Of a stretch of 64,000 nucleotides of DNA, positions 5,191 through 61,277 are shown one piece after another. A model generated the notes under the pieces. That model was not told the origin of the DNA and searched no databases. It saw nothing but the letters and a program-made list of their open reading frames with translations. This DNA is from Octopus vulgaris (Eukaryota). The position numbers were made by a program, and so were the translations under genes. The number at the start of each line of letters is the position of its first letter. Position 1 is the stretch's first letter. The stretch is taken from contig OX597818.1 in assembly GCA_951406725.2 (NCBI GenBank), forward strand, positions 74,276,001-74,340,000. Direction: 5' to 3'.

Positions 5191-5495
5191 CGTGTAAAAT
5201 ATAATTAAGATTCAGTCGAATTAGACATTTGAATTGAGGTACCCTGCTATTTCGGTATAATCAGCACCCAAAACAATATTATTTGAATACTGAATATCAA
5301 GACTCATTGTAGTGATATTTGTACCCGATATTCTTGTCCTCTGCGCAGACAACGCAACCCAGCTAAGTGAAGTTACCCGCTCTTGGTAATTCAGACATGT
5401 ACTTTATGTCAAGGCACTTCTGTAGTATTTCCGAAGTGCAGATTCAAAGTTAGGCGAAAAGAAAATGCATAAATAGCAAAATGTACACATGTCAG

Positions 5496-5582
5496 TTCCT
5501 TACGACCATTTCAAGCGGTTCCATTTAATTGGTTAATTAAAACATTACATCAATTTGAAAGAAACCATTCTCGTCAGATGAC
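5496..5582 (-). ncRNA. Hammerhead ribozyme motif, left arm of palindrome, helix I damaged
   Basis: Minus strand: gtcat CTGACGA gaatggtttc...ggaaccgctt GAAA tggtcg TA. Confidence 0.6.
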
Positions 5583-5669
5583 CCCATAGACTTCAAATAT
5601 AAAAAATAAACCAGTTTTTGACAAATTTACATCGGTAATGGTTTATCCTTTATGTTTGAAGTATATGCG

Positions 5670-5756
5670 GTCATCTGATGAGAACGGTTTCTTTCAAAGT
5701 GATGTAATGTCATCATTAATCAATAAAAGGGAGCCGCTTGAAACGGCTGTAATGAC
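5670..5756 (+). ncRNA. Type I hammerhead ribozyme motif, right arm of palindrome
   Basis: gtcat CTGATGA gaacggtttcttt...aagggagccgctt GAAA cggctg TA atgac. Helix I gtcat/atgac, long helix II with one mismatch, near-palindromic helix III. Confidence 0.85.
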
Positions 5757-5798
5757 TTGAGAGAGGTACATCTTTGTTACTTATCTGTATGCTATGTG

Positions 5799-18125: not shown

Positions 18126-19728
18126 TGTTGCATTTGGGGATTGTCATGTTGCCAGTTTAGCCAATAAAAACACACGCACTATATATTTGGTGTTCATTTG
18201 CTTCAACTTTATTTTATGTTAATCATATTTCAGCCACAGTTCTTTCGTCACACTTTTGTGACCTCATCAGTGGTCCTTTGCATTTTTATATCTTTTCTTT
18301 GGGGATGGTGATGGAGTCTTTCCTTACTAATGATCAGTCATTTTGTATCCCTACTCTATGTCTCTTTATTTGTGCATGCGTATACCCCTATGTGCCTGTA
18401 TTATTTTATTTTATTTATTTTATTAATGTAGATAGTTATTTAATTCAAATTTGTTTATTTGTGTATTGTATTATATTATATTCATATTGTTATCAGTTTA
18501 TGAGGATTTTATTCTGTCATAAGATGTGGTGTGTTGTGGGGGTACTAGTGTTCCATTCTAGTTTCCTATTCATGCTAGGTTTATCTTCTATTATGTGTGT
18601 AGCTTCTGTAATTTGTCTAAGCGTTGCGTCTGTTCTATGTGTGGACAAGATTTTAACTTTTATGTTGTTGAGCAAGCCCCCATGTTCCTGTTCGGCGTGC
18701 TGGTACAGAACCAGAGAGCTCTTCTCTTCCTTTAGTTCCCTCCAATGCTCATTTATCCACTCTCCTATGCTGCGTGCTGTTTCCCCTAGTTCGTCATTGT
18801 CTTGTTACTGCACCGTCCCTCTGTACATCTTATACTATAGACTACATTCCTGGCTTTACAGTTTCTTTCTGGGCTAAATCTACATACAGCACAGTTCTAT
18901 CAGTACAGAGTATTCTATCTAAATGGTATGTTCTACCCATTAGAGATTTCGTAGGGTTTCCTAGCATCTCTACAACCTTAATTCTTAGCTTAAGTTTTTC
19001 TAGGGCCCTTATAAAGCGGTACGCAGTTCGCCTTTAGGGGTGATGTCGACGAACATGACACTGGCTATCGTACCATGAGTTGGTCTTCCCTATTTTCTTC
19101 TTAGTCCTTTCAATGGTGTTCCATGACTTGCTCCTACAGAGTCGGAAAATCCCATTCCAATCGTTACGTATGACAGTTTCAAATTTCCTCGTCGCTCCTT
19201 TGTATAATCTGATCCTTTCTCTTTGCCTGTATCCTGAGAACTGCATGCGGTGAACGAAATGTTGTATGTGTCACTTTAACTCTGGAGGGTCGCACATGTG
19301 GGACACATTTCTCATTACTCTGACGAGGTCTGCCATCAATATATTGAATTTGGCATTGTACGCGATAGCTGAGTTCCGGTGGATCAGGTATTCAGTTTCC
19401 AGCCAGAGTTCTGTATCTATTGCTGGTAGTCTATGGTTAGGGTGTTTCGTAGGGTAGTCTATCGAAACCTTAATACTCTGGTGGATGGAGTTAGCTATTT
19501 GCTGGATGCTCTCCATAGTATTAGTTTCTATTTCTTTTTCAAGAGTACTCTCTTGTGGGGGTGCATTTACTACTACGTTGATATCATCGACATAGCGGGA
19601 GTATATGTTCATGAATATGAAGTTCTTTGTCGGGTGTTCTTTAAGCCTTTTGTCCCACCTTATCATGAAAAGGTTGGCGTGTGTTTTTATTGGCTAAACT
19701 GGCAACATGACCGTCCCCAAATACAACA
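18126..19728 (-). mobile_element. Penelope-like element, 5'-truncated: RT C-terminal part, GIY-YIG, pLTR hammerhead (18234-18273), inverted 52-bp terminal copy
   Basis: ORF 19271-19666 has YSRYVDD and LPAIDTELW. Downstream GETARSIGEWINEH...RQITEA...MNRKLEW. CTGATGA g gtcaca aaag tgtgac GAAA. 18126-18177 is the reverse complement of 19677-19728. Confidence 0.9.
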
Positions 19729-27151: not shown

Positions 27152-27313
27152 ATATATAGTCTATTGAGTAATTTTTCTACACGCTAGGCCACTGGTAGTA
27201 AGTATTTCTAAATTTTTTTCTTACTATGATTTTATATATATATATGTATATATATATATGTATATATATATGTATATATATATGTATATATATATATGTA
27301 TATATATATATGT

Positions 27314-27848
27314 TAGACCGCTGGTGGCAAAATAATTTCTGCTGAATTTTTTGCTACCCTATATTGATTAATTATGAATTTTCTGTTTAATTCCGAAATG
27401 GAATCGGCAGCTTATATTTGCTGCCGATAAATTTGGCGCGAGTACGATGAGTTCGAAAATTTTAGGTCAGATATTGCCGAAGCGGTAATGTTGCTGCCTC
27501 GTGTAATTTCTCTCCCTCCTGGCTTTCTTTACTGATGAATTTGTTGGCCTATGGAAGATTGACTTGATTTAATTTAATCAGGCTGATTTACCATTAAAAA
27601 ACGATGAAACAATGCATTGTCTAAAGATGAACGGGGTAAATGTTTTTTTAATTTTCTCCTGGTTTACGGAATTACTACTATTTTGCGGTTGAAGCCTTGG
27701 CTGTTATTTCTAGTGGGTTGAACGGCCTATTATGGCCGTTCCTTAATTTATTGTTGAATTTATTAATAGTCTCTGACTATTTCCTTTTTCTCACTAGACC
27801 GCCGGTGGCAAAATAATTTCTGCTGAATTTTTTGCTACCCTATATTGA

Positions 27849-27856
<8 letters not shown>
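27314..27856 (+). mobile_element. Terminally redundant non-coding element (481-bp period plus 62-bp direct repeat) with one hammerhead; retrozyme- or pLTR-like
   Basis: 27314-27375 equals 27795-27856 (one mismatch seen). TA-type repeats on both sides. Confidence 0.8.
27526..27627 (+). ncRNA. Type I hammerhead ribozyme motif, canonical core, GUC site
   Basis: tcttta CTGATGA at...gat GAAA caatgcattg TC taaaga. Confidence 0.85.
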
Positions 27857-27913
<57 letters not shown>

Positions 27914-28205
27914 TCAGTAACAATAAAGGGTGAAATTAATTAATTTGGAATAATTATCAATTACACCAAGTAGATTTCGGCATGTAAAAGCCTCATTCGA
28001 GGAAAATTTAAGTAATACTAAGCAATTAAGGGTTTAGCAACGAATTGCCTCACCAACACACCGAATTTAGAAATAGCAGTCAAAGAGATATAGCTATTCC
28101 TTCTACTAAAAGGGAGATCTCAGTAAGAACACAGCACTTGAAAGGCAAACACAGACAGGTAAGAAAGAATGAAATGACGGCAATCTATCATACAATTTTA
28201 AGTTA

Positions 28206-28297
28206 CCTACGGACGTACGTTTCGAAATCAAGTTTTAGGAAAGCATAAGAATTAGAAAATTCTACCTTACCCAAACTTCTTTTCTCATCGGCGTAGG
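28206..28297 (-). ncRNA. Type I hammerhead motif with U4C core, inside a TA-flanked element at about 27909-28760
   Basis: cctacg CCGATGA gaaa...tttc GAAA cgtacg TC cgtagg. All three helices are intact. Confidence 0.8.
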
Positions 28298-28757
28298 ATA
28301 CTACAATTATGAATAAACAATTTGTTACCGAAATGCATTGCGAATAAGCCCGCCATTTTCATAGATATGTAAAGATAAACATTCGTACATGCTACGACGA
28401 ATTCTACGGTTGGATATCGGGTTTGTAACGTTATGTTTTTTCTTATATATCTTGAGTTTGTTGCACTGATGAACATAGAATGCATATTCTGCATTAATTG
28501 CGAAATCACAGGTGATATGTAACTAAATTATATTTTTAAATGACTTGCTTTGAAGTTTTGCATTCGGTAAAATTTTGTTTATTTTAGTAGTTTTGACCGC
28601 ATTGGTCCCTCTTAGCGTGTGGCATCTACGAATAGTAGTAACCTGAATATAATATAAATAAATATTTTCAAAGTGGAAAAATTTACGGATTTTTTCTCTT
28701 ACGAGATTTTTCACGCTAACTACTGATAAATTCTTATAAAGATTTTATCCTCAATTG

Positions 28758-28862
<105 letters not shown>

Positions 28863-29379: not shown

Positions 29380-29790
29380 CAAGCTGGCACAATCGTTAGC
29401 ACACCGAGCGAGCTACTATAATCGTTAGCACGCCGGGCGAAATGGTTAGCGGTATTTCATCTGCCGCTACGTTCTGAGTTCAAATTCTGCCGAGGTCGAC
29501 TTTGCCTTTCATCCTTTCGGGGTCGATAAATTAAGTACCAGTTACGCACTTGGGTCGATATAATCGACTTAATCCGTTTGTCTGTCCTTGTTTGTCCTCT
29601 CTGTGTTTAGCCCCTTGTGGATAGTAAAGAAATAGGTCTTTCGTCTGCCGTTACGTCCTGAACTCAAATCCCGCGGAGGTCGACATTGCACTTCATTCAT
29701 CCGGGTTCGATTAAATGAATACCAGATACGCACTGAGTTCAATGTAATCGACTTAATCCCTTCGTCTGTCCAAATTTGTCCCCTCTATGT
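29380..29790 (+). mobile_element. Nin/Deu-like SINE with a tandem diverged partial copy
   Basis: gagttcaaattc..ccgaggtcgactttgcctttcatcctttcggggtcgataaattaagtaccag. Second unit starts at about 29640. Confidence 0.85.
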
Positions 29791-29934
29791 TGAGATGTAT
29801 TTATTCCACAAGAGAGCATTTTTTTCTCCACGGTAATCGCATTGAACTTGCTTTTAGAAGTTGAAATATGACAAACATATTTTAATTAACTTAGTGTTCG
29901 CTTACGCCCAAACATCCCTAGGCTCTGATACTGC

Positions 29935-33916: not shown

Positions 33917-34507
33917 GACGATGAGTTAACTATAGCTAACTTCTTAGATATTACTCTTAATTTGCAAAATAACTCATACTTCCCATATCACAAACCTTCC
34001 ACCAATCTCAAGTATATTAGTCCTTCCAGTAATCACGCTAGGGCAATTACTAAGAATTCAGTTAAAAACATTTCAGTTCGATTGTCTAAATTATCCGCCA
34101 ATGTTGACATTTTTAACGACAAGGCAGAATTTATAATTCTGCCTTAGTTAAAGCAGGGAATAAAGAAAAAGTTACATACATTGATTCTGCTCAATCTCAT
34201 CCTTCATCTACTGTTCAAGACAAGAAATCTAGTTGTAATAAGAAGTATGATTTTAATTCTAATATTGTAAACAGCACAAAACATAAAATTCCTTTACGGG
34301 TTAAGGGGATCAAGCATTATTTAAGCCCATTTTTTTAAGTCTAGAGGAATTTCACCGTTCTTTAAAGATAGTACCACTTATAATTTGATTGTTACTAGGA
34401 AAACTGTCTAGTTTGTTATTCCGTAAGAAAAACAAATTAAATCTAATCTTCCTTTGTAGTTCCATGAAGTGGTTGGTAAGAACTTTCCAAAAAATTCTAG
34501 ATATTAC

Positions 34508-34830
34508 GGAGATGTACTTGCATAGCAAGTGATTTGGTCTGAGATCGTGTGCTGAAACGAAAACAATAGCAGCGTGGAAGGTGTTTGTAAGCCATTTAAG
34601 AAACACACAAAAGCCTTTCGATTCCCTTCAACATTTAAGTTTAATTTGTCAAAATATTTTCGTCGCTATCAGACCACGACCTGTTCACTGATAAGATTTT
34701 TGTCAGTGAACAGGTCGTGGTCTTATAGCGACGAAAATATTTTGACAAATTAAACTTAAATGTTGAAGGGAATCGAAAGGCTTTTGTGTGTTTCTTAAAT
34801 GGCTTACAAACACCTTCCATGCTGCAATTG
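34508..34830. mobile_element. Palindromic insertion with a 12-bp target-site duplication and two back-to-back G3-C8 hammerheads
   Basis: tctagatattac at 34496-34507 and 34831-34842. Arms about 34564-34695 and 34700-34831. Confidence 0.85.
34699..34749 (+). ncRNA. Type I hammerhead motif with swapped G3-C8 core pair (mirror copy at 34645-34695 on -)
   Basis: tttgtca GTGAACA g gtcg..cgac GAAA atat TT tgacaaa. Confidence 0.75.
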
Positions 34831-35008
34831 TCTAGATATTACTGAATTATTAATTCTCATATAGAGTTGCCTTCTCCATCACAAAGAATCTTTCACAAAT
34901 TATATCTTCTCATAATATCAGTCTGCTAAATAAAATTTCATTTTCTGGGAGTTTCAACATTAATTTTGTTAATTCCACCCTTCACATAATAATAATAATA
35001 ATAATAAT

Positions 35009-35066
<58 letters not shown>

Positions 35067-35077
35067 GCAATAAAAAC

Positions 35078-35509
35078 ATGGTTTTGATCTCTGAGGACAA
35101 CCCCAACATAATTAAATTTATGTCTAATAATTCTAAGATCAAGAATTCTATATACCAATGTAAAATTTCTTGCGGTACCGATGTCTACTTCTACATTGGC
35201 GCAACCTCTTCCCAGTTATCTAAGAGAATTTCCAATCATTATTCTTCATTTAGGGATAGCAGTAAACGTCATAGCACTGGGCTAAGTAAATTGGTTTGGT
35301 ATCTTAAAAACAACAATAAGGATTTTAAGTTAGATTGGTTCATCATGTCCATATCTTTACCTTACGATAAGGGCAAAGGATTTTGTAACATTTGCAACTC
35401 TGAATTCTTCCATATACTCTTCTCTAAGAATCACCTTGTTAACACACTTATAGAGCGATCTTACAAATGTAAGCACTGGCAGAAACATACCTTTAGCTCA
35501 TATAAGTGA
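35078..35509 (+). pseudogene. GIY-YIG endonuclease domain of the PLE
   Basis: SIYQCKI...FYIGAT...KRISNH..SFR..STGLSKLVW.LK..CNICNSE..KCKH. Confidence 0.9.
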
Positions 35510-35782
35510 TTTTACCAGTCTTTGTAGTTTGAACATTTAGTTCAACGTGCACTTTACTTCAATAGAGAAATCTACTTCCAAGCCTTTGAACACTTTTTCA
35601 ACCAATATATCCCTCTTTATTTGCTCTCTACTTATTATTTCTTTACCCATTCTCTTCCTAGTGTCTGCCTTTGATGTCGAATCTACTAACGGTTTGTTTT
35701 AAATACTTAATAGAGTTCTATTTATCATTTATGCAGTCATCAAAATTGTTATAATGTCTTGTTGTTGAGATAGGTTCTCTTT

Positions 35783-35865
35783 CTTTCCTGATGAGAAGAT
35801 TGCATTTTACACCGTTTATTCCTTTGGAATAAAACCAATGTTGTCTTCGAAACATATGTCGAAAG
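35783..35865 (+). ncRNA. Type I hammerhead ribozyme motif, canonical, in PLE pLTR
   Basis: ctttc CTGATGA gaagat...gtcttc GAAA catatg TC gaaag. Predicted cleavage after C35860. Confidence 0.9.
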
Positions 35866-36078
35866 TAAAAGAATTTGAATAGCATCTGCGTTCAACTCCA
35901 TTTATTTACTTATACTACACAAATTACTACACATTAACCCGTTGTTTCTACCTTTGAAAAGGTCGCTATATCCTTGTTACTTGCGTGAATTTTGCTACCC
36001 CGGAAACTGTTTATTGAATTTTCCATGTTAACGGTAAACAAAGGATAATACATTCATCCATTTATATATATATATATG

Positions 36079-37432: not shown

Positions 37433-37925
37433 AAATAGCTTCAGGGTTGATGTATTAAAGATAGAGTAATATTTATGTTGTCAAGGGAGGTTAGTATATT
37501 AAAGAAGGATTTAGTTAAGTTTTTTTTTAACATTAAGAGAGAAGGGAGTGTATACCATAGGATAGAGCATCCGCCACTTTTATTAGGGTGTTTAGGGGTA
37601 GTGCTATCTATATTTTTGGAGAATGGAGGTGTGTAGCACGGCCCACTTTGTTAGCTGTTTCAGCTTTTGGCCTAGTATTATATTTGTGCGTGTGGGGTGT
37701 AGGTTGTCTTAATGCGAGATCCTCCTGGTTCTATCAAAGTGTATATGTGGTCTGTTGTGATTCTGATGGTTGGTGTATCGTTGCGATGTGATATATGTTG
37801 TTTGAGCGTGGTATTAGGGATGTATTTTATTTGTTGGGAGAAGCAGCTGGCAGAGAGCGCTTGGTTGTAATATGGTGCGTGGTTATCGAAAATGTCCTCA
37901 GTGGAAGAGAGGTCAGATATACCTC
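37433..37925 (-). mobile_element. Internal PLE fragment, close copy of 46790-47160
   Basis: LSSTEDIFDNHAPYYNQALSASCFSQQIKYIPN is encoded almost identically at 46800-46900 (+). Confidence 0.85.
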
Positions 37926-38850
37926 GTGCCATTCAATAACAACTTTAGCTGTGTGAATTGGGGCTTTATCATCCCGAAAGATTGCATTTACCCCCGAAAA
38001 CAGTTCCACAATCATAGGATGAATTTGATGAGATAAAATGCTTAAATAGTCTTGACTATTAATTCCGCCATGAAGGGAAACCATAGGGCCGGCGGATTTC
38101 CAAGATATAGCCCCACCCCAGATCATCACAGGTACTCCTCCATGTTTAGCAGTTAGAAGAAGGCAATCAGGGTCAAATGCTTTTTTTGGCTGTCTCCACA
38201 CGTATACCCGACCGGTGGTCGGGTGTAAGGTAAAGGATCACACGCCAGACAAAATAACATTCTTCCACTGCTCTAGGGACCAATTCTGTATGTTTTACTC
38301 TACTCTAAACGCTTTTCAACGCTTGTTTTCGAAAGTAGTGCTTTTCTGATAGCAGTCCTCGCGTGAAATCTGGGATTGTGCAGCTCCCGTCGAACAGGTT
38401 TTGTGGAAACTAGCTTCTCGAGGTAGTCATTAAACTCTGCAGTAATTTTGGGAGGTGTACATTTGTGATCCTTTCTAACAATTGGCATTCTTCCGAAGTT
38501 TTGTTTCAACGAGAAGGTTTTTCCCTCTTTCTCAAATGCTGTCATTACTTTCGAAATAGTACTTCTTCATACACCAAACATTTCGGTTGTTTTTGTCGCG
38601 CTAGCGCCTGCCATACAAGCACCAACAATTTGACCTCTTTGTAAGTCCGATAGCTCTGTCATTTTCCTGAATTTTAATTACCTTTCCCTGACGATATCTG
38701 AAAAGAAGCAGCAATTTTAACAAAGCATATTAAGCAACACTAATAATAAATCAAAAAACATAAAAATAAACAAGCTTTTGACGCTTTTATAGATATTTCA
38801 AAATTATGATGCTATGGTGCTAGGTACTTCCATTATTTTTCTAACCCGTG
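37926..38850 (-). mobile_element. Tc1 transposon, 5' part with left end (ATG at 38662)
   Basis: MTELSDLQRGQIVG.., VWRQPKKAFDPDCL..KHGG..VMIWG..IFRDDKAPIHTAK. Terminus ta|cacgggttagaaaaataatggaa. Confidence 0.9.
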
Positions 38851-42220: not shown

Positions 42221-42223
<3 letters not shown>

Positions 42224-43892
42224 ATGAAACGGTAAGATAACAAAAGAAAGAAAGAGACCTCAATATTATGTAAATAGAAGAAATTTATCTATACAATATG
42301 TTACATTACTCGGTAGTCAAGATAAAACTCTGAGTTTCAGATGCCGAAGTGGAAATCCACAACACCATCTCTTCGGTTATCTGGCTATTTGAAAACGTTA
42401 TGAAAAAATACCGTTAAATAAAGGGAAATTACTCTGTTATAACTCTGCTTGCCTGCGTACTTATACATCGCTCGCATTTTTCGCATATATAAAAATACAT
42501 AAAAAACATAAAAATATATAAAAATATATAAATTCTTCTTGGGACATAACATAGAAAGCATGTTCTATCTGTTTTCTTTAGGGAACCAAAAACGTAACAG
42601 AAATTTAGTCACATGTGGGCATGATCCGAAAAGCTCTGTCCTTGTATTTAGACTTTCCAGATAAGCCATCTCTCCATGTCGCATAGACCGCACCTTCTGC
42701 TGCCGTTAGTATAGGGCTTACATCTGGCCAAAATCTTCCATTGTATGTTATAATCGACACCTTTTTCTCTTAAAGACCAAATATGATTAGATAATTGTGT
42801 CGCTTTTCTTTTGTTCCAGTGCCTAAAGCTCAAAGTGTGGTTATTGAACCTGGCCTTGAAATTACCCTCTGTAAGGCCCACGTATTTCTTCGTCGAAACG
42901 GTGTCTTTAGTGGTTATAGAGTTTACGGTAGCTTCATATATGATGGTCTTGGACATGCAAGCTCCATTTAGCGGGCACAATTCTTTATTCCTGAATGAAC
43001 AGCTGTTTTCTTCTTGTGTTTTTTGTATGTTATGTTTGATTATGTTTTTAAAATTGGTAGTTGAACTAAAACTAATTTTTAAATTGTGTCTATTGAAGAG
43101 TTTCCTATAAGTATGGTTAACTGGAAAATGTCTATCTATCAGTGCTAGGAAATATTTACCTATATTGAAGGCCACCTCGGGTGAGTAAACCAGATGGCCT
43201 TCCTATTTCTATTATTCCTTTTCCTTACTGTTGGGCTAGTGATAGGTGTATATTTTATTTTATCGCTAAAACCACTATCTTTTAAAGCCTTATTATAAAC
43301 TGGGGCAACGCTATTGAAGATGTCCTCATCAGATGAGAGGCTAGAAATCCTCTTACTAATATTTTTAACTAAATTTTTGAATACTATAGGGGGATGGCAT
43401 GAACCTACATTAATATAACTTAGTCTATCATTGGGCTTCCTGTAAGGCTTATAAATATTCTTATTAAGATCTAAGGAAACGTCTAAGAAATTGACAACCG
43501 TCAGGGTAGTATCTATAGTTATACTAAGTCCGAAGTGTTTCATTAACTGGATAATATCCTTCCTAAAACGATATTGTGCTGGTCCATTTGTATTAGCTGT
43601 TAAGGCGAGGGCATCATCTTTGTAGATGGAGAAATGTACGTTAGGGAATGTCTTACCTAAGGTATCTAGGAGAAAAAGTCCAATTAGATCGCAGATGCCT
43701 GCCCCATCATATGAACCCATGCTCACATCGAAAGCGCCCTCTGTGTCGGTGTTTTTTACCCACTTTGTGTTCTCACTGAAAAGTAATGTCTTTCTAGCAT
43801 GGAAGATTATGTTCTTATCATTGGTACTAATTTCTATGAAGTCATTAGCGAAGATGAGGGTTTTATCTAGCAGTTCTTTAGAGATAGAGGCA
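42221..43892 (-). mobile_element. Penelope-like element: RT (43160-43892), GIY-YIG (42648-43175), pLTR hammerhead-like motif (42320-42382)
   Basis: FDVSMGSYDGA, IYKDDAL, NFLDVSLDL, CPLNGAC..IIYEATV..KYVGLTE..KARFNNH. One frameshift between the ORFs. agataa CCGAAGA gatg..catct GAAA ctcagag TT ttatct. Confidence 0.95.
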
Positions 43893-44051
43893 TATATATA
43901 CATATAAATCAATAAATGGTGGGGTTGTGTTGACCACACGTGGAGAAATGATAGGCAAAGAAAAATTATAAAAAGGCAGAATGCTAAATTGAAGGTAAAT
44001 TTTAACGGAAATGGGTGTATAGAAAATTAAAAAAAAAATTTTTTTAATATT

Positions 44052-44237: not shown

Positions 44238-45600
44238 AAGAGAATTGGAAAAGATTCCTGGACGACTGTTTTAAACTCTGGAATGAAAACACAGATAAAC
44301 TCTTAAAATTCAAAACCTACTGAACAGCATCAACCCAAATATACAGTTCACTATGGAGTACAACTAAAAGGAGCTTCCATACTTAGATATACTGATTTAA
44401 AAAATTAGCCTAAAAATAGAAACAGATATATTTTACAAAATAACAGACGCCAAACAATACCTACTTTTTGATTCATGCCACCCAAGACACACTAAAACAA
44501 ACATCCTTTCAACCTTGCAAGAAGGATATGCACAATAGTGTCAGAACAAAATACCAGGAACTTTAGACTACAAGAACTCAAAACACCCTAATTGACAGAC
44601 ACTACCCAGTTCAACTCATAGAGGATGGGATCAGACGTGCAACAGAAATCGACATAGAAACTTTGAGAAAAGTTCAACACAACAACACACCTTCCCCGAA
44701 AATACTGCCTTACATATCCACATACAACCCCAGAAACAAAGAAGCTTTCACCATCATCACCCAGAATTTACCAATACTTCATAAGGACCCCAAATTAAAG
44801 GAAATTCTAAACATACATAAAATCATAAAAAAGCTACAAACAACCTAAATCACTTAAAAAGATTCTCACAAAGGCAAAATTATTTTCTGAAATTACGGAT
44901 GCAAAAGTAAAAAAAATGTGGTAGACCAAACTGTGCAACATGCCCAAACCTTCTAGAAGGATCAGAATTCCTTTTCAAAGAGGAACAAAAATTCAAGATC
45001 AGATCTAATTTTACTTGTGCTTCTGAAATAATATTTTATGTCATAAGATGCTCGGGCTGCCACGAAAACTACGTAGGGTCCACAGAACTATCACTCAGAC
45101 GCAGATGCACTCTGCATCGACAACAGATTGCATTCCCAGAATACAGAATGTTACCCTTTAGTGAGCATATTGAGAAATACGCAATGCAACTACAAACACA
45201 ATTTTTAATCTTTCCATTCTATCAATGTGCTATTGAAACACCAACACAAATTAGACTAAACAAGGAAACATTCTTCATTGAAAAATATAAGCCTGAACTT
45301 ACCCATTCTAACATTCTTATACAGAGAAACTCATCTCATTAAAAAAAAGCGATTATCTCCCTTATACCGGAAGAAATCCCTTATTACCTCCCCTACCTGG
45401 AACTCTTCTTTGCACTTAATAACGAAGACATGACACGATGTAGGTAAAGAAATTTAAGAAATTTCAAAAGTTTACACGAAACCGGTTATTTCTCCAAAAA
45501 CTATGTTACTATACACAAAATTTTCTAACATAACGACTTAAATATATTCTTTAACCTTATAAAACAAGCCTTCTGTAGTTTTTTCACTCTTTATTTTTTT
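44238..45600 (+). mobile_element. Penelope-like element of a different lineage (Cys-rich linker before GIY-YIG), frameshifted; decayed U3-A8 hammerhead at 45448-45493
   Basis: [52 protein letters not shown]. agaaat TTAAGAA..GAAA ccgg TT atttct. Confidence 0.9.
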
Positions 45601-46259: not shown

Positions 46260-48830
46260 GCCATACACGTCCACGCTTCAGCCTGAAATCATAGATACGC
46301 CTCATATGCCCCACCAAATCCGACCTGGGAAGAGTAAGTAAAAATATTTTGGACAAAATAATACCAATCGTCAAGTAGAGATTAATGGTCAACTTATGGT
46401 CCTGTACAGGTGAAGTTATTACATGTTTCAATCTTCTTAAACAACAAAAACTTTTATTCTTTCCTAAAAGTCGACATAAATAATGACTATCCTTCTATTT
46501 CTCACGAACATCTTAATCAGAGATGACGCGTTGCTAGTTCCCAAGAGCGTAAATAAATCATCTTTAGAACGAACTAGAAAATATCTACACAAATTCTTCT
46601 CCAGCTTAAACATGCCTATTACGTTTGAAAATTCTCACAAAACTACTAACTTTTTAGATGTAACTCTAAACTTAGAAACCTCCCAATACTCTTCTTATCA
46701 CAAACCTAACCAATACCTTAAATACCTAAACATTCATTCCAATCACCACTAATCCACCTTCGATAACATAGTCAGGGGTATTTCTATATGTATATCTGGC
46801 CTCTCTTCCACTGAGGAAATTTTCAATAACCACGCACCATATTACAACCAAGCGCTCTCTGCCAGCTGCTTCTCCCAACAAATAAAATACATCCCTAATA
46901 CCACGCTCAAACAACATATATCAATTCGCAACGACACACCAACCATCAGAATCACAACAGACCACATATACACTTTGATAGAACCAGGAGGATCTCGCAT
47001 TAAGGCAACCTACACCCCACACGCACACATATAACACTAGGTCAAAAGCTAAAACAGCTAAGAAAAAACGCAACTCTATTCTCCAAAAATATAGATAGCA
47101 CTACTCCTAAACACCCAAATAAAAGTGGCGGATGCTCTATTCTATGGTATACACTCTCTTATATTGGACTCTAACGTCCCTCGACAACATAAATACTGAA
47201 GCTATTCTATCCCACCACACCCAACTTTTAAACTATCATAGCAGTCTCTATTAAACTCACATTATAGCAACTCTAAATACACGAACACTCAACATGTACA
47301 CAGCTTCAGCATTGAAACTCATACCACAAACACAACCATAATCCAAATCATCTTGCTAGCACTATCCGGAATACTACTACAACTTCCATCACCCCTACAG
47401 ATATAATAATTAACAACAGCGATTGCAATAATAACAATAATAGTAATAATAACATTAATAATACTAATAACTTAGACCTTTCTATCCGCTTCTCTAACCT
47501 CTCCTCTGACAGTATTGTCACCTCCATTCCCCAAAATAGCCCCCAAAATCACCCACTTGTAACTGCCGTCCTGGATCTATCTGCCCTCTACAAACACATT
47601 GTAGAAGATCTAATGTCATTTATAAATGCACCGTCCTCAACACATTACACAATTCTACAGACATATATATAGGGTCAACCATAAATTTTAAACATCGATA
47701 TGCCGCTCATTTGAATTCTTTTCGATACGAGAAACTCAGTAAATCCACAACACTCACCAGTCACACACGTCATCTAAAAAATAGAAATATTCTCTACACT
47801 CTGTCATGGACCATAATAGATTCAGGGCTTCCATATCAAGGTCAGCGCTTAGCCTGTAAATTATGCTTGAAAGAAGCATTTGACATATTAAAGTACAACT
47901 CCTCAACACTACTTAACAAATATAATGAGGTAGTAGTATTAATATGTCTATATATATGTGTGTGCGTGTATACGTATACATATTCGCAAATATACATACT
48001 TTCCTCCGTTTCCTACCTGCCACTAACCTATCACGCACGTCTATTTATAGTAATTTGACATCCTTGTACTCTTCCCTCCACCTCAAATTTTACTACTAAA
48101 ACTACGACTCACTTATCTTTCCTATACCTTTTCTCTATCTATTCCTTAATGCAGCTCTGTCATATCACCCCTACTCACATATCTCACATTCTTTTACTCC
48201 TCTCTTCTCATCTCTTCCCCTCCCTCCCCCACTTCTCACTTCCTTCACCCTTTCTTCATTTGTTTTTACTCTTTGCTTTTATCTCTCTCCCCTTTTTCAC
48301 TATTTGCTTTTGTATCTCTCCATTTTTCTATTTTTCTCTCTTTCTTCCTCTCATTCTGTCTTCCTGTTTTAGATCTGACCTTTCTCCTCGTTCTAATCAT
48401 ACACATCCCTCCTTCTTCCATCTATATTACAAATACATTCTCAAATTATTCATTCACGCCACAAAGACCTTTCGGACGAGCAACACTGATTCCACGGATC
48501 CATACATTGAAATGACTAAATATGAACTACTATTGGAACTTACACTTATTGGAACGTACAGGAAGTTGTTTTTTTTTACACTTCAATACACCATTTTCCT
48601 AGAATAATGGAACTGCAATTACAATATCTTTATATATTTTATTTCTACTTCCATTCTCTTAATTCTCTCTATATTCCCTAACTTTTCCACAATAATTCGA
48701 ACTTAAATATTTTCTCACTTCGTCTCATGAAGGGATAGTCATAATATCCCAGAAACAGCTGTAAGACTATTTCATTATAAATGTCCCGAAAACTCCTCAC
48801 AGCCTTGGATATGTTATCTCATTCGGTCAA
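46260..48830 (+). mobile_element. Penelope-like element, internally deleted and decayed; damaged hammerhead at 48722-48767
   Basis: RLICPTKSDLGRVSKNILDK, RDDALL, NFLDVTLNL..YHKPN..SNH, SFRYEK..STTL..CKLCLKE. gtct catga a gggata..tatccc a GAAA cagctg TA agac. Confidence 0.9.
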
Positions 48831-49033
<203 letters not shown>

Positions 49034-60432: not shown

Positions 60433-60482
<50 letters not shown>

Positions 60483-60484
<2 letters not shown>

Positions 60485-60840
60485 TCAAGGAATGGCAATC
60501 AAGGAATGGCCATAATAGGCCATTCACCCACTAGAAATAACAGCCAAAGCTTCAACCGCAAAATAACATTAATTCGCAAACCAGGAGAAAATTAAAAAAA
60601 CATTTACCCTGTAATTTCTTATACGATGCACCGTTTCATCTATTGTTTAATGGTAAACTAACCTGATTAAATTAAATCAAGCCAATCTTCCATAGGCCGA
60701 TAGATTCGTCAGTAAGAAACAGCCAGATCCGAGCAGATATTCAGATAGCTAAACGAGGATCTCTATCCTGCCTCGGCAATATCTGACCTAAAATTTTCAA
60801 ATCATCGCACTCGCGCCAAATTTATCGGCAGCAAATATAA
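60483..60840 (-). mobile_element. Second member of the 27314 family, with an intact hammerhead at 60615-60719
   Basis: tttctta CTGACGA atctat...atagat GAAA cggtgcatcg TA taagaaa. Its 3' end abuts (TA)n. Confidence 0.85.
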
Positions 60841-61084: not shown

Positions 61085-61277
61085 ACTCTTTTACTCTTTT
61101 GCTTGTTTCAGTCATGTGACTCTGACCATGCTGGAACACTGCCTTTAGTCGAGAAAATCGACACCAGGACTTATTCTTTGTAAGCAGGTTACTTATTCTA
61201 TAAGTTACGGGGACGTAAACACACCACCATCAGTTGTCAAGCGATGTTGGGGGGGACAAACACAGACACAGAAACGT

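Follow-up and report, generated by a model that had tools for sequence, protein, structure and literature searches.

A solo, ORF-less retrozyme-like copy in (TA)n DNA of Octopus vulgaris, probably a passenger of Hydra-clade PLEs

Introduction

The animal non-LTR retrozymes, in which solo monomers are common and whose units range from 51 to 972 bp, have been linked to the pLTRs of PLEs, and eight of nine Xenopus retrozyme dimers are described as lacking cleavage (10.64898/2026.07.22.740005). Invertebrate units are reported at 170-400 nt, with a mussel retrozyme of about 350-390 bp as the molluscan example, and circular RNAs have been shown for the coral, mussel and axolotl retrozymes (PMC7229834). 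Among PLEs, (TA)n is the target of almost all families of the Hydra clade, and these bear hammerheads on the sense strand close to the 3' end; PLE insertions are typically partial tandems, with a full copy preceded by a truncated one (PMC8557442). The mode of movement of animal retrozymes and the purpose of the PLE hammerheads are standing questions: more-than-unit copying from a circular RNA template was proposed in 2014 (PMC4209133) and in 2020 (PMC7229834), and in one in vitro study the Poseidon protein of the anole worked on RNA that had not been processed, primed within it at AT-rich DNA and did not need the hammerhead (PMC11167929).

Here we describe a locus at positions 27314-27856 of a 64,000-nt stretch of Octopus vulgaris contig OX597818.1 (positions 74,276,001-74,340,000), hereafter the window. 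Its sequence marks it as a likely small, parasitic retroelement whose type is known from other animals, and we hold with good confidence that it was carried as a passenger of a Hydra-type PLE and copied from an RNA template longer than one unit. A closed 481-nt unit, a candidate driver clade, a (TA)n target and a shared motif together make the circle-template model testable.

Results

The locus comprises a 481-nt non-coding unit on the plus strand (27314-27794), strongly structured on the hammerhead strand, followed by a terminal redundancy of 62 bp. The first arm of this redundancy (27314-27375), which contains a 10-bp hairpin (27323-27358) and the motif TGAATTTTTTGCTACCC, recurs at 27795-27856 with 61 of 62 positions identical, the sole mismatch being T27322/C27803, and the second arm continues into (TA)n. 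The arms are offset by 481 bp, and an offset scan from 470 to 494 returned 61 matches at 481 and 11-25 at all other offsets, in agreement with the period and redundancy proposed in an earlier note on this DNA. The locus thus amounts to 1.13 units (543 nt) with a single hammerhead, and the same note was right to describe it as non-coding, as bearing one mid-unit hammerhead (an intact type I core within 27518-27635) and as flanked by TA repeats on both sides. Indeed, the longest ATG ORF of the circularised unit has 26 codons, leaving it without coding capacity, and a Hydra protein profile search of the unit and its flanks found no RT or endonuclease and no single ORF combining RT and GIY-YIG. 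On the 5' side lies a (TA)n tract with TG interruptions (27233-27311), the presumed insertion target, and on the 3' side a (TA)28 tract (27854-27909) places the locus tail-to-tail with a neighbouring element at 27910-28760.

The unit is considerably more stably folded than its shuffled versions, with z scores of -5.4 to -5.9 on the hammerhead strand (-5.9 linear, -5.8 circular) against -1.9 to +2.2 in 15 control windows; the opposite strand reaches -4.4 with 5 G-U pairs, compared with 26 on the hammerhead strand. Additional local structure includes a perfect 9-bp hairpin at 27403-27428 and an 8-bp hairpin at 27720-27741, both on the plus strand. A reading of the unit as a tRNA-derived SINE was set aside since ARAGORN returned 0 genes, and a Pol III promoter was rejected because the B-box-like GTTCGAAAA near 27451 is absent from the second copy described below and from the variants.

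The predicted type I hammerhead (27518-27635, plus strand) is built from helix I (27526-27531/27622-27627; TCTTTA/TAAAGA in this copy), a distal helix (27518-27521/27632-27635) and a core of CUGAUGA (27532-27538), GAAA (27606-27609) and UC, with the predicted cut after C27621; the consensus CUGANGA, GAAA and UH elements and the three helices are present in both copies of the unit. A strict hammerhead pattern gave four matches in the window, compared with one across all 60 composition-matched simulated windows. Stem III is the palindrome CAAUGCAUUG (27610-27619, plus strand), for which the predicted self-duplex is worth -15.1 kcal/mol in copy 1 and -17.5 kcal/mol in copy 2, and the hairpin 0.0 and -0.2. 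Since it is predicted to pair between molecules and not as a hairpin, stem III suggests cleavage as a dimer, as described for type I motifs of animals and proposed for PLE hammerheads (PMC4209133). Helix II has 6 bp in copy 2 and is weaker in copy 1, where a bulge or mismatch follows the first 3 bp, and the modelled cost of the active fold in copy 1 is 8.9 kcal/mol in the circle and 4.2 kcal/mol in a 151-nt piece, with a probability of at most 0.02 for helices II and III, compared with 2.1-2.7 kcal/mol in copy 2. By these folding models, the copy 1 hammerhead looks partly decayed. Folding also gave, as an alternative pairing, a pseudoknot that would join GGC(U), on the 5' side of helix I, to the GGCC of the internal loop of stem II; it shows no covariation and is a guess.

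Stem II, which the earlier note had passed over together with the Hydra-clade PLE link in the window, spans 67 nt (27539-27605, plus strand) and is divided into a short basal helix, an internal loop and an 18-bp G-U-rich extension (27551-27569/27576-27594). The core halves are 67 and 68 nt apart in copies 1 and 2 and 54, 58 and 61 nt apart in three other window elements, with a fifth family, at 42376, at 31 nt. Sense-strand hammerheads are found in 63 of 90 Hydra-type loci drawn from animals other than that of the window (80 of 391 metagenome matches and 10 of 10 from genome contigs, many of them redundant), and all 78 motifs have 10-31 nt between the core halves, with spacers of up to 120 nt allowed in the search; by blastn, the unit itself has no similarity to these 90 loci (best E 0.82). 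In published Hydra-clade hammerheads, loop II measures about 10 nt or less, and the nearest long-stem precedent we have seen is that of the spike-moss PLE-X1 hammerheads, whose stem of about 50 nt is marked as deviating (PMC8557442). An Rfam scan returned 0 matches at gathering scores and, at E values up to 10 over 27200-28800, 14 weak matches with 0 hammerheads among them. The long stem II thus escapes Rfam even at E 10, and such elements may be under-counted in cephalopods.

A partial second copy lies on the minus strand at 60497-60840 and covers unit positions 99-435 with 82% identity over 349 columns (E 3e-91). It is about 345 nt long, carries an intact hammerhead (core 60712-60706) with a 68-nt stem II, and has a 14-bp duplication (60484-60510) at its end, against an (AT)24 tract (60435-60482). 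The earlier note had introduced this paralog at 60483-60840 with helix I and helix III sequences that are as it gave them; the 82% identity is confined to a partial copy, and TA repeats adjoin only the 3' end. Accordingly, (TA)n insertion is seen at both ends of copy 1 and at the 3' end of copy 2, which is a weak test because TA tracts are very common in the window. The end registers of the copies on the unit differ (62 for copy 1, about 437 for copy 2), and the predicted cut site lies uninterrupted within each of them, so that their template would not have been a cut linear monomer.

We then compared pairing between the copies. In a 38-pair named structure, 75 of the 76 cells are paired, with four double and four single changes; slid structures pair at 20-48%. 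The double changes fall in helix I (two, which could be one paired indel), in helix III (one) and in the 27720-27741 hairpin (one, C-G to U-A in copy 2). In a shuffle control, 98 of 500 shuffles scored at least as high, a non-significant result obtained from two sequences with little power. A simulation of pair retention gave P values of 5e-6 to 4e-3 that do not constitute a test, as the helices were derived from the same two sequences and the broken columns (helix I positions 7-8, the helix II base at 4-6 and two extension columns) were left out. The earlier claim that covariation implies selection on the fold is borne out in its observation, pairing being kept where the sequence differs, the two-copy covariation being non-significant.

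Variants in sequencing contigs extend this comparison. Among the 40 of 92 variant rows listed, 13 fall in named helices and 10 of these keep or restore the pair (27355, 27518, 27541, 27562, 27583, 27585, 27586, 27628, 27632 and 27633). Positions 27526, 27604 and 27605 are potential pair breakers unless the partner changes; loose contig ends contain the partner change for two of the three, with 27604 as an unexplained exception. These partner changes are helix I TTTCTTA/TAAGAAA and helix II GTCC/GGAC (run X11), the latter with its strands taken from two separate loose ends. In the usual hammerhead position numbering, the only core change among the 40 of 92 variant rows listed is at the free N7 position. 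Furthermore, G-U pairs are kept and are swapped with Watson-Crick pairs on one strand only. A-to-I editing as a source of the G-U pairs is not supported by the A/G versus C/T variable places in the four aligned runs (15/16, 22/16, 21/16 and 19/17), counts that carry no information on direction. Taken together, these patterns are suggestive of selection on the RNA fold, short of a formal result.

The non-significant two-copy covariation, and the fact that the minus strand also beats its shuffles (z -4.4), would both fit a satellite, or a DNA repeat rich in hairpins, that spreads as DNA and acquires paired changes by arm-to-arm conversion. Such a repeat would account poorly for a hammerhead whose core is intact and oriented like those of coding PLEs, for G-U/Watson-Crick exchange confined to one strand and for copies that are dispersed and TA-anchored, and we regard it as very improbable.

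The unit is wholly or partly present, always in contigs, in 20 of 24 listed sequencing runs from 10 studies under four organism labels. Four of the 24 runs were aligned to it, and six of the 20 matching runs, with small shares, were left out. The alignments contain 1951, 1269, 149 and 358 contigs, most of them below 99% identity, with every bin covered; the intervals 27314-27393, 27385-27479 and 27456-27780 are each bridged by divergent contigs, and two of the four runs (X3 and X11), under two organism labels, contain an end-to-start joint from 27780 to 27314 with a different 13-nt linker. With all junctions of the 481-nt cycle covered by variant contigs, the unit is, on this assembly evidence, a property of the family, closed in other copies and without a universal end, and the same contigs mark the family as large and diverged. 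Greater-than-unit copying, put forward in the earlier note, is supported insofar as other family members cross both junctions and both window copies span the predicted cut site. The shares of aligned contigs that continue into unlike sequence are 0, 0, 0.03 and 0.01, and the 24 of 245 loose ends listed are by eye variants of the unit with no attached ORF. In all four runs, contig depth drops about tenfold just after 27750, where copy 2 ends, which may reflect a preferred end or only local divergence of copy 1, the two explaining it equally well. No two-hammerhead array was seen among the contigs listed, none of which spans 27314-27856 and in which repeats collapse, and exact-pattern searches for further copies gave 0 in metagenome contigs and 0 in viral contigs.

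The two redundancy arms share alleles that are rare in the family. Both carry G at 27341/27822 and C at 27342/27823, minor alleles in four of four and three of four runs, respectively, where the family majority is A at 27822 (4/4) and T at 27823 (3/4); C27803 is absent from all aligned depth in all four runs. The shared minor alleles indicate that the arms come from one molecule or from a homogeneous array and, together with the single mismatch, fit one template copied beyond its start. A 543-nt copy of a 481-nt unit would need either a circle or a tandem transcript, and on sequence grounds the shared arm alleles fit a circle and an uncut tandem RNA equally. The same passenger family could thus be copied from uncut head-to-tail transcripts in pLTR style, the 62-bp repeat being a 5'-truncated second unit and any circles by-products. 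This alternative, which all the sequence facts fit as well as they fit the circle, is in keeping with the typical partial tandems of PLE insertions (PMC8557442) and with the anole element, which primes without hammerhead cleavage (PMC11167929). It would require a homogeneous source array for the minor alleles common to both arms, and the apparently conserved core (an N7 change only, among the 40 of 92 rows listed) argues that cleavage matters at some step; we consider it possible, though on the unlikely side.

A candidate driver is present in the same window. Starting from relatives of a window RT fragment, we built a custom profile (65 matches among 2289 candidates; 31 aligned, plus three window fragments), which located coding PLE remnants at 33923-35506 (+), 43897-42651 (-) and 46271-47935 (+). 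The RT relatives carry the RWK, DKT, CxCX5C, CxxC and CxH motifs that define the Hydra clade (PMC8557442), and the RT at 43.2-43.9 kb is by eye close to Hydra-1_Obim of Octopus bimaculoides from the same source. Pfam gave one sub-threshold GIY-YIG match for five window proteins; for the endonuclease fragment at 35066-35506, a longer homologue was found in 0 of 203 candidates and no Pfam family was relevant. The Hydra assignment of the remnants therefore rests on motifs and the custom profile.

Hammerhead-bearing PLEs coexist with the unit in the window, with hammerhead-like motifs at 35788 and 42376. The first belongs to a degenerate coding Hydra-clade PLE with RT and endonuclease remnants (33923-36062, plus strand; 54-nt stem II), which we propose as the type of element that served as parent or driver of the unit. 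The motif TGAATTTTGCTACCC occurs in the remnant ending at 36062, downstream of its hammerhead, and in both 62-bp arms, and nowhere else in the window; the pattern TGAATTTT(N0-2)GCTACCC has three window matches (two in the unit, one in the Hydra remnant) versus 0 in 100 shuffles. These motifs are part of a shared 3' module (27322-27400, plus strand) that resembles 35961-36029 of the coding remnant and 28046-27974 of the neighbouring element and that could, from its sequence, be a candidate RT recognition signal. The first 87 bases of the unit score 43 against the 3' region of the coding remnant (none of 400 random pieces of the window exceeded 42) and 46 against that of element 27910-28760 (none of 400 exceeded 43), with scores barely above the background maxima and a query chosen after the motif had been sighted. 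The likeness to the coding remnant thus comprises a motif of 15-17 nt and an alignment of about 65 nt in a single remnant chosen post hoc; the module has no match at the window 3' ends at 5.7, 42.3 and 48.8 kb, and no full-length parent with the whole unit in common was found. The module of the coding remnant follows the hammerhead and sits close to the end. Copy 1 has the full module only at its start and a truncated one at its end, as expected of a permuted copy.

With other hammerhead-bearing PLE ends in the window, and with local duplications at such ends (such as the 14 bp at copy 2), the locus could instead be the dead 3' end of a coding PLE, that is, a solo pLTR or UTR with a local 62-bp duplication and no independent non-autonomous family behind it; contigs break at repeats, and attached ORFs could be under-reported for that reason. 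We judge this improbable, given the end-to-start joint in divergent copies under two organism labels with almost no run-on into foreign sequence, the absence of any Hydra protein match in or beside the unit, and the permutation of the 3' module, complete only at the unit start, relative to the coding remnant.

The neighbouring ORF-less element (27910-28760, minus strand) belongs to another family and carries a hammerhead-like motif at 28291 with a CCGAUGA core, a 61-nt stem II and the palindrome CGTACG. It has the shared 3' module and no internal direct repeat, is bounded by a TA tract on either side, and is possibly a second non-autonomous family.

The window holds further elements of interest. 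A 320-bp inverted repeat (5469-5784, 78%) lies just before a TA tract and is reminiscent of the truncated copies that occur inverted in PLE insertions; its plus arm has a hammerhead-like motif at 5675 with a 58-nt stem II. The Hydra-clade remnant at 42222-43897 (-) encodes RT and endonuclease in two frames, with TA tracts near both ends and a degenerate hammerhead at 42376 with a 31-nt stem II, and the Hydra-type RT and endonuclease remnants at 46271-48831 (+) have a pyrimidine-rich 3' region, in which a degenerate hammerhead was recognized by eye at 48725-48770 before (TA)n. Also by eye, we noted a PLE-like ORF fragment with a GIY-YIG domain and a CxxxxCxxC finger (44911-45342, +) and endonuclease- and RT-like PLE fragments at 18517-18804 (-) and 19271-19693 (-). 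At 29451-29791, a segment of 184 bp is tandemly duplicated (1.9 copies with 79% matches). ORF fragments at 37827-38566 (-) are presumably of Tc1/mariner transposase type, and we take the repeated sequence at 61130-61260, with similar copies elsewhere, to be SINE-like and of octopus type. Outside the window, Hydra-type PLE ORFs were found in ten contigs catalogued under bacterial MAGs or the genome of a symbiont (L081-L090), seven of the ten with sense-strand hammerheads; these contigs are probably animal host DNA binned into bacterial genomes. Two of them, L084 (3449-4543) and L088 (1882-2484), contain several distinct hammerhead motifs in direct and inverted orientation within a few hundred bases, which suggests nested or inverted PLE ends.

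Discussion

We propose that the locus is a solo, 1.13-unit, ORF-less retrozyme-like copy, a passenger of Hydra-clade PLEs that entered (TA)n by copying of a circular RNA, a reading to which we give roughly even chances; its driver, its transcription and cleavage, and the circle of the 481-nt unit, are what we infer from the features above. The passenger status and the longer-than-unit template, the more secure part, are common to this proposal and to copying from uncut tandems. In the proposed pathway, tandem or overlapping units would give rise to read-through transcripts, which paired hammerheads would cut via the palindromic stem III, and a host ligase would join the cut units into circles of about 481 nt. 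A Hydra RT-endonuclease would then nick the (TA)n target, begin synthesis within the RNA, close to the shared hairpin/GCTACCC module, and produce copies of variable length, 543 nt in copy 1 and about 345 nt in copy 2. The anole Poseidon and Xenopus dimer results, the costly active fold of copy 1 and the drop in contig depth after 27750 count against this pathway, whereas the circles shown for other animal retrozymes speak for it.

A more specific and decidedly tentative possibility is that an octopod Hydra-clade lineage evolved hammerheads of 54-68-nt stem II, which escape standard models, and gave rise to abundant ORF-less retrozymes that form 481-nt circles and keep the parent's 3' recognition hairpin. 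If so, driver and passenger would constitute a matched pair with a defined cis signal for a rolling-circle test of a PLE RT.

The class of element is likely one already known, and by analogy the unit likely works like an animal non-LTR retrozyme. The 481-nt family is undescribed in the mainly open literature that we searched on octopus and cephalopod hammerheads or ribozymes and on non-autonomous Hydra derivatives; it may be present under another label in existing repeat libraries, for example the one behind the O. vulgaris annotation.

Like animal non-LTR retrozymes, the unit is non-coding, low in GC and highly self-paired, bears a type I hammerhead and occurs alongside PLEs; unlike them, it comprises 1.13 units with one hammerhead, exceeds the 170-400-nt range at 481 nt and has a stem II of 67-68 nt (10.64898/2026.07.22.740005, PMC7229834). 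It further differs from them in its (TA)n insertion and its specific link to the Hydra clade, and it is known here from DNA sequence. The preprint reserves the term "active" for loci in which two or more units follow one another and every unit has a hammerhead; with 1.13 units and one hammerhead, the locus is therefore filed as a solo retrozyme-like copy.

With the Hydra-clade PLEs, including Hydra-1_Obim, it has in common the (TA)n target and a sense-strand type I hammerhead with a palindromic stem III, which in that clade is short, the hammerhead lying near the 3' end (PMC8557442); the unit differs from them in its longer stem II and in having no RT/endonuclease ORF. The PLE hammerheads proposed to act as dimers have the same type I topology and palindromic helix III (PMC4209133), although the palindrome of the unit is longer, at 10 nt, and its stem II much longer than in the examples given there. 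As an ORF-less, repeat-forming PLE derivative, the unit also resembles the non-autonomous Chlamys elements such as MRC1, which have pLTR-like repeats, head-to-tail copies and a resemblance to autonomous 3' ends; these differ in that they are mostly without hammerheads, reside in green algae and target (CA)n or (C)n (PMC8557442). Finally, in contrast to the plant LTR retrozyme, with a type III hammerhead in each of its two LTRs, the octopus unit carries a single hammerhead, of type I, located outside the 62-bp repeat.
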